Of a stretch of DNA of 64,000 nt, positions 20,977 to 60,430 are shown piece by piece; the stretch's first letter is position 1; each line of letters begins with the position of its first letter. The DNA lies in assembly GCF_003018115.1 (NCBI RefSeq), contig NZ_CP027457.1. One strand, given 5' to 3'. The translations under genes were made by a program, and so were the position numbers. Below the pieces are notes generated by a model, which saw nothing but the letters and a program-made list of their open reading frames with translations, did no database searches and was not told the DNA's origin. The DNA comes from Escherichia coli. Its GTDB lineage: Bacteria; Pseudomonadota; Gammaproteobacteria; Enterobacterales; Enterobacteriaceae.

Positions 20977-22479
20977 GTGATGACAGAGCCGCATGTAGCA
21001 GTATTAAGCCAGGTCCAACAGTTTCTCGATCGTCAACACGGTCTTTATATTGATGGTCGTCCTGGCCCCGCACAAAGTGAAAAACGATTGGCGATCTTTG
21101 ATCCGGCCACCGGGCAAGAAATTGCGTCTACTGCTGATGCCAACGAAGCGGATGTAGATAACGCAGTCATGTCTGCCTGGCGGGCCTTTGTCTCGCGTCG
21201 CTGGGCCGGGCGATTACCCGCAGAGCGTGAACGTATTCTGCTACGTTTTGCTGATCTGGTGGAGCAGCACAGTGAGGAGCTGGCGCAACTGGAAACCCTG
21301 GAGCAAGGCAAGTCAATTGCCATTTCCCGTGCTTTTGAAGTGGGCTGTACGCTGAACTGGATGCGTTATACCGCCGGGTTAACGACCAAAATCGCGGGTA
21401 AAACGCTGGACTTGTCGATTCCCTTACCCCAGGGGGCGCGTTATCAGGCCTGGACGCGTAAAGAGCCGGTTGGCGTAGTGGCGGGAATTGTGCCATGGAA
21501 CTTTCCGTTGATGATTGGTATGTGGAAGGTGATGCCAGCACTGGCAGCAGGCTGTTCAATCGTGATTAAGCCTTCGGAAACCACGCCACTGACGATGTTG
21601 CGCGTGGCGGAACTGGCCAGCGAGGCTGGTATCCCTGATGGCGTTTTTAATGTGGTCACCGGGTCAGGTGCTGTATGCGGCGCGGCCCTGACGTCACATC
21701 CTCATGTTGCGAAAATCAGTTTTACCGGTTCAACCGCGACGGGAAAAGGTATTGCCAGAACTGCTGCTGATCACTTAACGCGTGTAACGCTGGAACTGGG
21801 CGGTAAAAACCCTGCAATTGTATTAAAAGATGCTGATCCGCAATGGGTTATTGAAGGCTTGATGACCGGAAGCTTCCTGAATCAAGGGCAAGTATGCGCC
21901 GCCAGTTCGCGAATTTATATTGAAGCGCCGTTGTTTGACACGCTGGTTAGTGGATTTGAGCAGGCGGTAAAATCGTTGCAAGTGGGACCGGGGATGTCAC
22001 CTGTTGCACAGATTAACCCTTTGGTTTCTCGTGCGCACTGCGACAAAGTGTGTTCATTCCTCGACGATGCGCAGGCACAGCAAGCAGAGCTGATTCGCGG
22101 GTCGAATGGACCAGCCGGAGAGGGGTATTATGTTGCGCCAACGCTGGTGGTAAATCCCGATGCTAAATTGCGCTTAACTCGTGAAGAGGTGTTTGGTCCG
22201 GTGGTAAACCTGGTGCGAGTAGCGGATGGAGAAGAGGCGTTACAACTGGCAAACGACACGGAATATGGCTTAACTGCCAGTGTCTGGACGCAAAATCTCT
22301 CCCAGGCTCTGGAATATAGCGATCGCTTACAGGCAGGGACGGTGTGGGTAAACAGCCATACCTTAATTGACGCTAACTTACCGTTTGGTGGGATGAAGCA
22401 GTCAGGAACGGGCCGTGATTTTGGCCCCGACTGGCTGGACGGTTGGTGTGAAACTAAGTCGGTGTGTGTACGGTATTAA
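20977..22479 (+). CDS. feaB: Phenylacetaldehyde dehydrogenase
   Basis: About 500-aa aldehyde dehydrogenase; catalytic Cys region GQVCAASSR and ELGGKNP motif. Confidence 0.9.
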
Positions 22480-37950: not shown

Positions 37951-38522
37951 ACGGTCTGACTCCAGTTGTGCCAGAAGAGAGTTTTGTCCATCCGACAGCG
38001 GTATTGATCGGCGATGTTATTCTCGGCAAGGGCGTTTACGTTGGGCCAAATGCCAGTCTGCGTGGCGATTTTGGTCGTATCGTGGTGAAAGATGGTGCGA
38101 ACATTCAGGATAATTGCGTTATGCACGGTTTTCCCGAGCAGGATACTGTCGTTGAAGAAGATGGACATATTGGTCATAGCGCTATCCTTCACGGCTGCAT
38201 TATCCGCCGCAATGCATTAGTGGGAATGAACGCGGTAGTGATGGACGGTGCGGTGATTGGCGAGAACAGCATTGTTGGCGCATCCACATTTGTGAAAGCC
38301 AAAGCAGAAATGCCTGCTAATTACCTGATTGTAGGCAGCCCGGCGAAAGCGATTCGTGAACTTAGTGAGCAGGAGCAGGCATGGAAAAAGCAGGGTACGC
38401 ATGAGTATCAGGTGCTGGTGACACGCTGTAAGCAGACGTTGCATCAAGTTGAGCCATTGCGGGAAGTTGAATCCGGCAGGAAACGCCTGGTATTTGATGA
38501 GAATCTGCGACCAAAACAGTAA
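37932..38522 (+). CDS. paaY: Hexapeptide-repeat thioesterase PaaY
   Basis: 196-aa left-handed beta-helix (gamma-carbonic-anhydrase-like) protein. Confidence 0.9.
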
Positions 38523-38600: not shown

Positions 38601-38764
38601 GCCGGATGCGGTGCTTGATGCGTCTTTTGCTGCCTAATGTTTTGGTGTCTTTCAGGATAACAGAGCAACTCATCCAGTAATCTTGTTTACGCCTTCGCAT
38701 TATTTATCTCTTTTCGTTTCTATACTGATTTTTCTTAATCCGTTTTATTACAGGGCAGGGTGCG

Positions 38765-39672: not shown

Positions 39673-39688
39673 ATGGCATGGAGTGCAT

Positions 39689-39790
39689 ATGTTTAAGCCC
39701 AGGATTTGCAGCTGGATAGGTTTACTTCTCCTGTTTATGCTGAGTACTTCCAGTACAGGCGGAACTTCGATGTGTTGCAAATGCAGTTGA
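39689..39790 (+). pseudogene. Truncated signal-peptide-bearing ORF fragment (33 codons), probable remnant of a secreted protein gene (ydbD-like?)
   Basis: GGAG SD then ATG; MFKPRICSWIGLLLLFMLSTSSTGGTSMCCKCS stop; protein-like coding continues downstream in two other frames. Confidence 0.4.
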
Positions 39791-39901
39791 TATTGAACCA
39801 TTTTTTTCTGCGGCTACCGCTGAAGATAAACAACAAGTTGAACAAGCTATCAACAGTAGCGTGAATCTTGTCCCTTCGGTTTATCTGCATCGGACTGGAA
39901 A

Positions 39902-41362
39902 GTGCATCGTGGCGATTTAGTGGTAGAAGGTAATATAGAGAGTAATCAAAAATTGATTGTTCTTGGCAATTTGACAGTCAAAGGTAATATTTCCACTTTC
40001 TCTCTTTCTAATCCATGGGTTATTCTCGGTAACGTGACGGCAACGAATATAGTTACGGATTCACCACTGTTAATTACCGGTTCGATAAATGCAAGTGGAC
40101 TGGTATTTATCGACTCATATTACGATAATCCGTCTACGATTAAGGGGAGTATTAATGCGCGTGGGATATTTATCAATGACATAATTGCACCTGTTGTTGC
40201 GTCTTCGACAAATAGTGAATTCATGGTCCGTGCGAGTGACAAAAATGACACTGAAAATGTCAAAAAAGCGCTGATGATAATAAATCCTGATGCATATTAT
40301 TGGGGTCTAATTAATGATGAAGATGCTCTGAAAGAAATTTTTAAGCGAAGCAATATTCGCATGGCAGGGAATGTCTGTAATCAGATGAAAAAAGAAGCGC
40401 TGTTTCGCCCTAAGCCTTCTCCTGAGTTAGTGCAGGAATTGCAAATGCTGGATGAAGGCAACGTTGCTGCATTTGAAGGACGAGATATTGCGACATTTGA
40501 TCTTGCCATAATGCGAACTCTCCCAAGGCTTAAAGGAATTTCAGCTAACCTACGCAAACAACTTATTGTTACATTACGTATTCGTACCTGGTGGGGTATC
40601 GTCATTTGTTTTTCACTGGTGATTTCAGGTCCACGCTGGATGACGTTGACGTTTTTTGCGCTGATAAGTTTTCTGGCATTGAAAGAATATTGTACGCTTA
40701 TATCCGTACATTTTCCGCGTTGGTTATATTTGGTTATTCCTCTTAACTATTTGCTTATCGGTTTTAATTGCTTTGAGCTGTTTCTGTTATTTATACCTTT
40801 GACTGGGTTTCTGATATTAGCCACCTGGCGAGTTTTTGTGGGTGATCCCTCCGGTTTTCTGCATATCGTGAGCGCCATTTTTTGGGGCTGGATAATGACC
40901 GTTTTCGCCTTGAGTCATACCGCCTGGCTATTAATGTTGCCAACCATAAATATCCAGGGCGGGGCGTTACTGGTGTTATTTCTTTTGGCGTTAACCGGGT
41001 CAAACAATATTGCACAGTATTTATGGGGGAAATCCTGCGGCAGAAGAAAAGTGGTCCCCAAAGTCAGCCCGGGAAAAACGCTGGAAGGTCTGGTGGGGGG
41101 CGTCATCACCACCATGATTGCGTCACTGATTATTGGGCCGTTGCTGACACCGCTAAATACATTACAGGCATTATTAGCGGGTTTGTTAATTGGTATTAGT
41201 GGTTTTTGCGGCGATGTAGTGATGTCAGCCATCAAACGAGATATTGGTGTTAAAGATAGTGGAAAACTATTACCAGGACATGGCGGACTCCTTGACAGGA
41301 TTGACTCATTAATTTTCACCGCTACGGTATTTTTTTATTTTATTCGCTACTGCTGTTACTGA
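39902..41362 (+). CDS. ynbB: 486-aa protein: N-terminal beta-helical repeat domain fused to a CdsA-family (phosphatidate cytidylyltransferase-like) membrane domain; C-terminal part corresponds to YnbB
   Basis: C-terminal ~285 aa multi-TM with CdsA signature KVSPGKTLEGLVGG...LLPGHGGLLDRIDSL; N-terminal ~100 aa of G/N-punctuated beta-strand repeats (LIVLGNLTVKGNIS, ILGNVTATNIV, ITGSINASGLVFI, KGSINARGIFIN). Confidence 0.7.
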   Translation: MHRGDLVVEGNIESNQKLIVLGNLTVKGNISTFSLSNPWVILGNVTATNIVTDSPLLITGSINASGLVFIDSYYDNPSTIKGSINARGIFINDIIAPVVASSTNSEFMVRASDKNDTENVKKALMIINPDAYYWGLINDEDALKEIFKRSNIRMAGNVCNQMKKEALFRPKPSPELVQELQMLDEGNVAAFEGRDIATFDLAIMRTLPRLKGISANLRKQLIVTLRIRTWWGIVICFSLVISGPRWMTLTFFALISFLALKEYCTLISVHFPRWLYLVIPLNYLLIGFNCFELFLLFIPLTGFLILATWRVFVGDPSGFLHIVSAIFWGWIMTVFALSHTAWLLMLPTINIQGGALLVLFLLALTGSNNIAQYLWGKSCGRRKVVPKVSPGKTLEGLVGGVITTMIASLIIGPLLTPLNTLQALLAGLLIGISGFCGDVVMSAIKRDIGVKDSGKLLPGHGGLLDRIDSLIFTATVFFYFIRYCCY

Positions 41363-41377
41363 AGGAAAATAGAGAAA

Positions 41378-44441
<3,064 letters not shown>

Positions 44442-56388: not shown

Positions 56389-57312
56389 TCAGAACGGCAT
56401 TGATTTTCGAATAGCGTTAATCATCAACTGGCAACCAGAAGAGAACGTCGCATCTACGCGGGTCAGTATTCCAATCGGTTCGCCTGCACCATGTCCCGGA
56501 ACAGGCAGGGCCACCAGCGTGGCATGACGCAGGTCGTCTTTTACCGCGCCAGAAGGGACAAACCACACGTAGTCGTATTCAACCGTAAGTTGACGAGATA
56601 GCGAAGCAGACAGCGTTTCGATACAACCCGAAGGAATTTTACAGCCCTGGCTCTGCACTAATGCATCTGAATGCTGGCGTGGCGCAGTGCCTTCTGGCGA
56701 TACAACGACCGGCCATTCCAGCACCCGGCTTAGCGTTACGTTCTCCTGAAGTAGCGGGTGATTAGGGCGGACAACCAGCTTCAGCGATTCAAGAAACAGC
56801 AGTTCGTAATTAAGCCCGGTCATCAGTTCAGGATCTGACATCCGACCAATGCCGATATCGATTTCCCCGGTTTTTAAACCCGCCAGAATCATAGGGTTAC
56901 TCATTGTCGCAACTTGCAAGGTCGTCTCTTTTTGTTGCTGATGAAACTGACCTATAACCGAAGGTAATATCCCCAGTGCCGCAGTAGGTAGTGCACCAAC
57001 CCTGACGACATCATTATTAAGACCTTCTTTACGATGAAGCGACTGTCCGGCAGTGTTGATGGCGTCAAGAACTCTGACTGCATGCGTTAAAAATTGTTCG
57101 CCGGGTAAGGTAAGTTGCGCCCCCTGACGGCCACGCTCAAACAAGCGAGCGCCAGTCAGCTGCTCCAGTTCATTCAATGTCTTAGAGAGCGCAGGTTGAC
57201 TCAAATTAAGGGTTTCAGCCGCGCGCCCCAAAGTTCCTTGTTGTGCGACAGCTACGAATGTATGAAGGTGGCGCAAACGGATGCGCTGACTAAACAGACT
57301 ATTTTTTTCCAT
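56389..57312 (-). CDS. ydcI: LysR-type transcriptional regulator YdcI
   Basis: 307-aa form starting MEKNSLFSQRIRLRHLHTFVAVAQQG with LysR HTH (NLSQPALSKTLNELE); track ORF has an unlikely 47-codon upstream extension. Confidence 0.85.
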   Translation of the reverse strand: MEKNSLFSQRIRLRHLHTFVAVAQQGTLGRAAETLNLSQPALSKTLNELEQLTGARLFERGRQGAQLTLPGEQFLTHAVRVLDAINTAGQSLHRKEGLNNDVVRVGALPTAALGILPSVIGQFHQQQKETTLQVATMSNPMILAGLKTGEIDIGIGRMSDPELMTGLNYELLFLESLKLVVRPNHPLLQENVTLSRVLEWPVVVSPEGTAPRQHSDALVQSQGCKIPSGCIETLSASLSRQLTVEYDYVWFVPSGAVKDDLRHATLVALPVPGHGAGEPIGILTRVDATFSSGCQLMINAIRKSMPF

Positions 57313-57528
57313 AAGCGATGTTAAAAACGAAGCGGTGTCGCTGACAAGTGAAGTTGTTTGATTATGATAACTTGATTGCAAAATATTATTAACAATTAAA
57401 GCAATTATGTTACAGCAAAATGGATAATATTGATGTTTTCGCGGCGAGATCACAGTTTGTAAATTCTTCCCGCCAGAGTGAATGCGGTTACCTACACTCC
57501 AGATTACTGACCACTGGAGGCAGACACT

Positions 57529-58550
57529 ATGGCGAACAGCATCACGGCGGATGAGATTCGGGAACAGTTTTCGCAGGCAATGTCAGCCATGTACCAGCAA
57601 GAAGTTCCGCAATATGGCACGCTGCTGGAACTGGTAGCTGATGTGAATCTGGCTGTGCTGGAAAACAATCCTCAACTGCACGAAAAAATGGTAAATGCAG
57701 ACGAGCTGGCGCGACTGAATGTTGAACGTCATGGGGCGATTCGTGTTGGGACTGCACAAGAGCTTGCTACTCTTCGGCGGATGTTTGCCATTATGGGGAT
57801 GTACCCGGTGAGCTATTACGATCTCTCGCAGGCGGGGGTGCCGGTACATTCGACAGCATTTCGGCCCATTGATGATCCTTCTCTGGCGCGTAATCCCTTC
57901 CGCGTTTTTACCTCGTTACTCCGCCTTGAGCTTATCGAGAACGAAATTTTGCGCCAGAAAGCGGCGGAGATTCTGCGTCAGCGCGATATCTTCACCCCAC
58001 GTTGTCGACAACTGTTAGAGGAATATGAGCAGCAGGGCGGTTTTAACGAAACACAGGCACAGGAGTTTGTGCAGGAAGCCCTGGAAACGTTTCGCTGGCA
58101 CCAGTCAGCAACGGTAGATGAAGAAACCTATCGCGCCTTGCACAACGAACATCGGTTGATTGCTGATGTGGTCTGTTTTCCTGGATGCCATATCAACCAC
58201 CTGACGCCACGTACGCTGGATATTGACCGGGTGCAGTCGATGCATGGTTCCGGTACCGTCTGACGCCTTCGGGTGAGGCGCATCGTCAGGCGATTCATCC
58301 TGGAGACGATCCACAGCCCTTAATTGAACGTGGTTGGGTAATGGCGCAACCCATCACCTATGAAGATTTCTTGCCCGTTAGCGCGGCGGGGATCTTCCAG
58401 TCAAATCTGGGTAATGAAACGCAGGCACGCAGCCACGGTAATGCCAGTCGCGAAGCATTTGAGCAGGCGTTGGGTTGTCCGGTTTTGGATGAGTTCCAGC
58501 TTTATCAGGAAGCGGAAGAACGCAGTAAACGTCGCTGTGGTTTGCTTTAA
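57529..58550 (+). pseudogene. ydcJ: ydcJ (DUF1338) disrupted: 244-aa N-terminal ORF, frame change, then ~100 aa C-terminal frame
   Basis: ORF 57529-58263 ends ...RVQSMHGSGTV; coding continues in another frame from about 58227 (...AVDAWFRYRLTPSGEAHRQAIHPGDD...) to 58550; total span 1022 nt versus 1344 nt expected for the 447-aa K-12 protein (from memory). Confidence 0.55.
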
Positions 58551-58774
58551 ATTCTGACCATCCGCCTTTGCAAAAATTTGCCTGATTTTACAAACGAATC
58601 AGGCTCATCCCATCGACATAAAAAAAATGCCGATTTATGCATATTCTCTCAGTTCAACAATTGGATTATTAATAAATATTGTCTAGAGTGAGCGGTCATA
58701 AATAAGCACTTTCTTGCCGCTGAAAACGACCAGCGCGGGACCATTCACAACACCAGAAGGACTCACTTTCAGGT

Positions 58775-60430
58775 ATGGATCGTAGACGATTTATTAAAGG
58801 TTCAATGGCTATGGCCGCCGTGTGCGGTACCAGCGGCATTGCTTCTCTTTTTTCTCAGGCGGCATTCGCGGCAGATTCTGATATTGCCGACGGACAAACC
58901 CAGCGTTTTGACTTCTCCATTCTACAGTCAATGGCGCATGACTTAGCGCAAACAGCGTGGCGTGGTGCGCCTCGTCCGTTACCTGACACGCTGGCGACAA
59001 TGACGCCGCAGGCTTATAACAGTATTCAATACGACGCCGAGAAATCGCTCTGGCATAACGTTGAGAACCGTCAACTGGACGCTCAGTTCTTCCATATGGG
59101 AATGGGATTCCGTCGCCGCGTTCGTATGTTTTCTGTAGATCCAGCAACACATCTGGCGCGTGAAATTCACTTTCGCCCGGAGTTGTTCAAATACAACGAT
59201 GCAGGTGTTGATACCAAACAATTAGAAGGGCAAAGCGATCTCGGCTTTGCCGGTTTTCGCGTGTTTAAAGCCCCCGAACTGGCGCGCCGTGATGTAGTAT
59301 CATTTCTCGGCGCGAGTTATTTCCGCGCCGTTGATGATACATATCAATACGGTTTGTCGGCCCGCGGCCTGGCGATCGACACTTACACCGACAGTAAAGA
59401 AGAGTTCCCCGACTTTACCGCCTTCTGGTTTGATACGGTAAAACCGGGGGCAACTACCTTTACCGTTTATGCGTTGCTCGATAGTGCCAGCATTACTGGT
59501 GCCTATAAGTTCACTATCCATTGTGAGAAAAGTCAGGTGATTATGGATGTGGAAAATCACCTGTATGCGCGCAAAGACATTAAACAGCTGGGCATTGCGC
59601 CGATGACCAGTATGTTCAGCTGCGGTACTAATGAACGTCGGATGTGCGACACCATTCATCCGCAAATTCATGACTCTGATCGTCTGTCCATGTGGCGGGG
59701 CAACGGCGAGTGGATTTGCCGTCCGCTGAATAATCCGCAAAAATTGCAGTTCAATGCTTACACCGACAACAACCCGAAAGGGTTTGGTTTATTGCAACTG
59801 GATCGTGATTTCTCCCATTATCAGGACATTATGGGCTGGTATAACAAACGCCCAAGTCTGTGGGTGGAACCGCGTAACAAGTGGGGTAAGGGCACCATCG
59901 GCCTGATGGAAATCCCAACAACGGGCGAAACGCTGGATAACATTGTCTGCTTCTGGCAGCCAGAAAAAGCTGTAAAGGCGGGTGATGAGTTTGCATTCCA
60001 GTATCGTCTGTACTGGAGTGCGCAACCGCCTGTTCATTGCCCATTAGCGCGCGTTATGGCGACGCGTACCGGCATGGGCGGTTTCCCGGAAGGTTGGGCA
60101 CCAGGTGAACACTATCCCGAAAAATGGGCGCGTCGTTTTGCCGTCGATTTCGTTGGTGGTGATCTGAAAGCTGCCGCACCAAAAGGCATTGAGCCGGTGA
60201 TTACGCTTTCCAGTGGGGAAGCGAAGCAAATCGAAATTCTCTATATTGAACCCATTGATGGTTATCGTATTCAGTTTGACTGGTATCCGACTTCGGACTC
60301 CACTGATCCGGTCGATATGCGGATGTATCTGCGTTGTCAGGGCGACGCTATCAGTGAAACATGGCTGTATCAGTATTTCCCGCCAGCGCCGGATAAACGT
60401 CAGTATGTTGACGACCGCGTGATGAGTTAA
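58775..60430 (+). CDS. opgD: Osmoregulated periplasmic glucan biosynthesis protein OpgD (MdoD), Tat-secreted
   Basis: 551-aa ORF with twin-arginine signal [32 protein letters not shown]. Confidence 0.9.

Follow-up and report, generated by a model that had tools for sequence, protein, structure and literature searches.

In the stretch of Escherichia coli DNA analysed here (64,000 nucleotides, hereafter the window), positions 57529-58550 lie between ydcI and opgD, which is the usual E. coli context of ydcJ. Judged from its sequence, this locus is ydcJ, whose current name is hglS and which belongs to Pfam family PF07063/DUF1338. The matching locus in RefSeq E. coli genomes is annotated as hglS, 2-oxoadipate dioxygenase/decarboxylase. 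Five neighbours of the gene, trg, ydcI, opgD, ydcH and rimL, are intact and encode proteins identical to the reference. ydcJ itself is present as two remnants separated by a deletion junction. The features of the region are as follows.

56389..57312, minus strand: ydcI (LysR-type regulator), divergent upstream neighbour, intact; its protein is identical to WP_000414564.1 as annotated in F9792.
57529..58263, plus strand: 5' remnant of ydcJ/hglS; 238 native codons (57529-58242) are followed by six codons read in the wrong frame (HGSGTV) and by a premature stop codon, TGA, at 58261-58263.
58241..58242, plus strand: deletion junction in ydcJ/hglS; 322 bp of the intact gene are gone between these two bases.
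58242..58550, plus strand: 3' remnant of ydcJ/hglS, containing codons 346-447 and the stop codon of the intact gene, no longer in the frame set by the start codon.
58775..60430, plus strand: opgD (glucan biosynthesis protein), downstream neighbour, intact; its protein is identical to WP_000375956.1 as annotated in F9792.

The original prediction had proposed that the start and the C-terminal end of ydcJ are both present in different frames, and the open reading frames bear this out. The first one, 57529..58263, codes for 244 amino acids; it begins MANSITADEIREQFSQ... and ends ...RVQSMHGSGTV, directly followed by the stop codon at 58261-58263 that had been predicted. The second frame, which had been thought to be open from about 58227, is open from exactly that position to the stop codon at 58548-58550 (tail ...QLYQEAEERSKRRCGLL). 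The sole ORF starting at an internal ATG in the frame of the 3' remnant is 58341..58550 (69 aa).

In strain F9792 as well as in DH5alpha, a K-12 derivative, intact ydcJ measures 1344 nt (447 aa), the length that the prediction had expected, whereas the locus analysed here measures 1022 nt, a shortfall of exactly 322 nt. The pairwise alignment that had been suggested as a check was run against intact orthologues. Aligned with the F9792 gene, the locus shows a single gap of 322 bp corresponding to gene nt 714-1035 (codons 238-345), and the 1022 nucleotides that remain match the intact F9792 allele without a single difference. The closest complete genomes, of the O169:H41 lineage, carry an intact allele with which these 1022 nt are likewise identical. 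For this reason the match to ydcJ is unambiguous and cannot be put down to chance. Since one G is common to both endpoints, gene nt 715-1036 is an equally valid description of the deletion. The junction reads CCGGGTGCAGTCGATGCATGGTTCCGGTAC, and the endpoints in the intact gene (slash, point of rupture) are CCGGGTGCAGTCGAT / GATGCC... and ...CAAGGGTTG / GCATGGTTCC, with a microhomology of 1 nt (G). A loss of 322 nt (1 mod 3) changes the reading frame after Met238, and a stop codon is reached six codons further on, as the predicted frame change implied. The inactivation of ydcJ by an internal deletion combined with a frameshift is thus supported by the alignment and by the premature stop codon.

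A megablast search with positions 57400-58700 as the query was performed against 5,426 complete RefSeq E. coli genomes, a set that does not include the source record. Matches were obtained in 5,417 of them, and each of the best 40 of these 5,417 matches is split into two pieces that extend over 1623 bp in the record against 1301 bp in the query, a difference of 322 bp. The deleted segment is present, once per genome, in 5,412 of the 5,426 genomes; orthologues with the same length and frame as the window allele, which would have argued against a deletion, are therefore not the rule, and ydcJ appears as a near-core gene that is normally intact over this segment. The missing 322-bp segment was also searched for elsewhere in the window and was not found. 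In the complete E. coli assemblies, five of the hits to the ydcJ locus fall on plasmid-labelled records, which are probably chromosomal fragments or mislabelled replicons.

The effect of the deletion on the protein was evaluated with the Pfam HGLS profile (PF07063, score cut-off of 25 bits). Intact YdcJ scores 536 bits and covers profile positions 1-386 out of 386. The 244-aa product still scores 327 bits, with its residues 14-237 matching profile positions 1-221 of 386 (57% of the profile), and the 69-aa ORF 58341..58550 matches positions 366-386 only. A complete HGLS domain is absent from any single frame, positions ~222-330 being deleted and the remainder being out of frame. The 244-aa product is expected to be inactive, because only 57% of the domain profile is present, and it is probably unstable. 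Since 43% of a single-domain enzyme has been lost, inactivation would be the only reasonable reading even without considering individual residues. By descent the locus belongs to the HGLS/DUF1338 family; with only positions 1-221 in frame, positions ~222-330 deleted and the rest out of frame, its coding capacity is that of a pseudogene of this family, not of a functional member.

Examination of individual residues points in the same direction. The match of the intact protein to the solved YdcJ structure 2RJB extends over residues 1-447 (E = 1.4e-301), and the protein can be aligned end to end with Pseudomonas putida HglS (6W1G, E = 2.3e-158); distant DUF1338 structures were not reached by phmmer against the PDB at E <= 10. 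We take the metal triad to be His70/His226/Glu294 in HglS numbering, which corresponds to His68/His224/Glu290 in YdcJ. In the alignment, HglS positions 70, 226 and 294 face H, H and E in YdcJ, respectively. By this alignment the His-His-Glu triad would be incomplete in the 244-aa product, with H68 and H224 kept and E290 located within the deleted codons 238-345. Likewise, Arg74, Val402 and Ser403 of HglS align with Arg72, Val391 and Ser392 of YdcJ; Arg72 is kept in the 244-aa product, and Val391/Ser392 are coded only in the out-of-frame 3' remnant. We infer that this product cannot form the vicinal-oxygen-chelate active site.

Thompson et al. 2020 (PMC7286885) showed that HglS belongs to the vicinal-oxygen-chelate superfamily; it is an oxygenase that depends on Fe(II) and carries a His-His-Glu metal triad. 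Its Arg74 and its Val402/Ser403 loop bind the substrate, and the R74A substitution abolishes activity (PMC7286885). Residue numbers for the triad were not found in the main text of PMC7286885 or in bioRxiv 450254. The hydroxyglutarate synthases of the DUF1338/PF07063 family have the P. putida enzyme (PP_5260; 6W1G/6W1H) as their characterised founding member. The intact E. coli orthologue, which aligns with it over its whole length, has the same activity in vitro, the conversion of 2-oxoadipate into 2-hydroxyglutarate (PMC7286885). In contrast, the window allele cannot encode the full active site. With respect to the YdcJ protein of E. coli and Shigella (b1423; 2RJB; NCBI name hglS), the window allele occupies the same ydcI-opgD locus and its 1022 nt are identical to the intact allele, but it lacks codons 238-345, is frameshifted after residue 238 and codes for 244 instead of 447 aa. 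P. putida hglS is needed for growth on lysine, while E. coli YdcJ has no established physiological role (PMC7286885), so that no phenotype can be predicted for the ydcJ deletion.

We examined the deletion endpoints for features that could have promoted the event. A search of the intact ydcJ region for repeats found none in direct orientation at the endpoints; imperfect direct repeats do exist in the vicinity, with spacings of 40, 147, 250 and 381 nt, and none of them coincides with the endpoints. A repeat-mediated (slipped-strand) deletion was rejected on these grounds, with 1 nt (G) common to the endpoints and the nearby repeats located elsewhere. A hairpin was also considered as a promoter of the deletion; the candidate, an inverted pair of 15 nt with 80% complementarity lying ~35-42 nt outside each endpoint, was judged to be at chance level and rejected. 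Because the segment is unique and its endpoints are devoid of repeats, both slippage between repeats and repeat collapse in assembly are excluded. The 322-bp deletion thus has the signature of an illegitimate, near-homology-independent joining.

Illegitimate joining in E. coli can occur by gyrase/topoisomerase-mediated illegitimate recombination or by RecBCD/LigA-dependent alternative end-joining. Codons 238-345 of ydcJ would have been removed by illegitimate recombination or end-joining at the 1-nt microhomology. The route could be a short-homology-independent recombination of the gyrase/topoisomerase type or the RecBCD/LigA-dependent pathway, and the sequence cannot tell which. The frameshift after Met238 would then bring a stop codon six codons later and yield a 244-aa product that keeps His68, Arg72 and His224. 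According to the alignment with P. putida HglS, this product would be deprived of the third metal ligand Glu290 and of the substrate-closing loop Val391/Ser392. The locus resembles the ordinary pseudogenes produced in Bacteria by illegitimate deletion, in which unique sequence is lost at minimal microhomology with a frameshift and a premature stop codon, the neighbouring genes remaining intact and no further decay being visible. It does not differ from them in kind; it is merely not shared with any genome searched.

The distribution of the allele was determined by searching for its junction, a survey of other isolates having been suggested in the original prediction. The junction was absent from all three collections: a 44-mer spanning it has no match in the 5,426 complete RefSeq E. 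coli genomes, and a 30-mer has 0 matches in GTDB species representatives and 0 in JGI metagenomes. The exact 244-aa product is on record once, in a single NCBI contig of 5,001,754 bp that is presumably the source chromosome. From these sequence searches, the ydcJ deletion allele appears to be private to one genome. Other, independent truncations of YdcJ are found on long contigs (P0002, P0010 and P0011), with a frameshift tail after residue 249 in P0002 and a 338-aa protein on a 5.28-Mb chromosome in P0011. It follows that E. coli can do without ydcJ well enough for the gene to be lost sporadically. A literature search for recurrent or selected loss of ydcJ found no report; what it retrieved for this gene were expression changes and one laboratory deletion of 5.6 kb (gapC-ydcJ), listed with the mutations of an isolate of a chemotaxis evolution experiment.

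Window positions 8422-64000 are collinear with the O169:H41 strain F6326-C1, the closest complete relative over this part, with 99.4% identity. Between 48 and 64 kb, the window differs from relatives carrying the intact allele by ~5 SNPs besides the deletion. The deletion event is likely recent, because the ydcJ remnants carry no further changes and the neighbouring proteins are identical to the reference.

The comparison with F6326-C1 also provided several observations on the remainder of the window. Positions 1-8421 correspond to ordinary backbone (abgA, dgcM, zntB, dbpA, ttcA) running straight into uspF. F6326-C1 carries prophage tail and baseplate genes directly upstream of uspF and the window carries none, so that the window genome would represent the unoccupied prophage site, with the break at 8421/8422. 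The ydbD-ynbA-ynbB region (~39680-41362) is a remnant with a fused ORF (39902..41362), annotated as partial or frameshifted pseudogenes in the O169:H41 reference; in most other E. coli, this region is ~2.6 kb longer, with an intact ydbD. The corresponding deletion is older and common to the O169:H41 lineage, unlike the apparently private ydcJ deletion. Conversely, feaB (20977-22479) and ynbD (43050-44441) are full-length open ORFs in the window, whereas F6326-C1 annotates them as pseudogenes, with an internal stop in feaB and a frameshift in ynbD. Compared to F6326-C1, the window ynbD has an extra A at 44340 and misses 6 bp (GCGCGT) at 43801. The density of SNPs with respect to the O169:H41 reference reaches 46-51 per 2 kb between 42000 and 46000, as compared to <=5 per 2 kb between 48 and 64 kb, and this mosaic around ynbC/ynbD/azoR/hrpA is a pattern typical of recombination. 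At the 3' end of paaY (38472-38477), a +1/-1 pair of indels located 5 nt apart results in a compensated local frame change relative to F6326-C1, and small insertions totalling 13 bp are present in the paaY-pdxI intergenic region (38624-38649).

We consider, with a probability of about 90%, that the locus is a recent, spontaneous and strain-private loss-of-function allele of ydcJ/hglS, the gene for 2-oxoadipate dioxygenase/decarboxylase, an Fe(II)-dependent enzyme whose product is D-2-hydroxyglutarate. The deletion may date from laboratory passage of the sequenced clone. The alternative that survives best is an artefact of assembly or consensus, in which ydcJ would really be intact and the 322 bp would have been dropped during assembly or polishing. 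The window is known as assembled sequence, and its source record lies outside the set of complete RefSeq genomes that was searched. Nevertheless, the collapse of an assembly needs repeats, whereas the deleted segment is unique and its endpoints share 1 nt. Nor does the window show the scattered homopolymer indels that a poor long-read consensus would leave. The 49.8-kb alignment block contains 16 gap openings, most of them clustered near 38.6 kb and few beside homopolymer runs; most are intergenic or fall in already pseudogenised sequence, and the 48-64 kb region has none but the ydcJ deletion. Finally, the chromosome is a single 5.0-Mb contig. We therefore regard an artefact as unlikely.

A selected, adaptive loss of hglS, for instance one that halts D-2-hydroxyglutarate formation or removes a pathway useless in the niche of the strain, is less probable still. 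The independent truncations P0002, P0010 and P0011 and the lack of an established physiological role for YdcJ in E. coli (PMC7286885) would be in line with such a loss. On the other hand, the conservation of the segment in 5,412 of the 5,426 genomes points to purifying selection and not to recurrent loss, the deletion allele was seen in one genome only, its remnants lack the further mutations that would betray a long history, and our literature search retrieved no report of selected ydcJ loss. We attach the same slight probability to a broader proposal, namely that either the 244-aa fragment (with His68, Arg72 and His224) is a stable product that retains some function or has gained one, such as binding of 2-oxoadipate or metal without turnover, or the loss of hglS is adaptive by removing a source of D-2-hydroxyglutarate.

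Deliberate engineering, by restriction and ligation or by a recombineering deletion of ydcJ, is hardly credible: a palindromic ATGCAT (NsiI) at 58240-58245 does span the junction, with a KpnI site 10 nt downstream of it, but ATGCAT occurs at neither wild-type endpoint, by a rough estimate several percent of random junctions should be spanned by some palindromic hexamer, there is no FRT or loxP scar, cassette, vector or other foreign sequence at the junction, an out-of-frame internal deletion with arbitrary endpoints would be an abnormal design, and the backbone is that of a natural mosaic isolate ~99.4% identical to O169:H41 strains. Use of the KpnI or NsiI sites was specifically rejected, the sites of the intact gene being off the endpoints: the deleted part contains its sole NsiI site (nt 970) and one of its two KpnI sites (nt 771), and neither this KpnI site nor the other, at nt 1046, falls on the endpoints 713/714 and 1035/1036. 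The GGTACC motif that the original prediction had placed at the junction does exist, but it is found at 58252-58257, not at the junction; the prediction was right in not taking it as a sign of engineering, since it is native sequence (position 1046 of the wild-type gene).

The spontaneous loss-of-function allele of ydcJ/hglS is a textbook pseudogene of a gene with published biochemistry, and involves no new mechanism, family or system. For annotation purposes, the locus should be recorded as an hglS pseudogene with an internal deletion and a frameshift, instead of being listed as two hypothetical ORFs. For the biology of E. coli, one isolate, related to O169:H41 over the stretch covered by the window, would be a natural hglS/ydcJ null. 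Such a natural null could serve as a knockout for establishing the role of the conversion of 2-oxoadipate into D-2-hydroxyglutarate in this organism.
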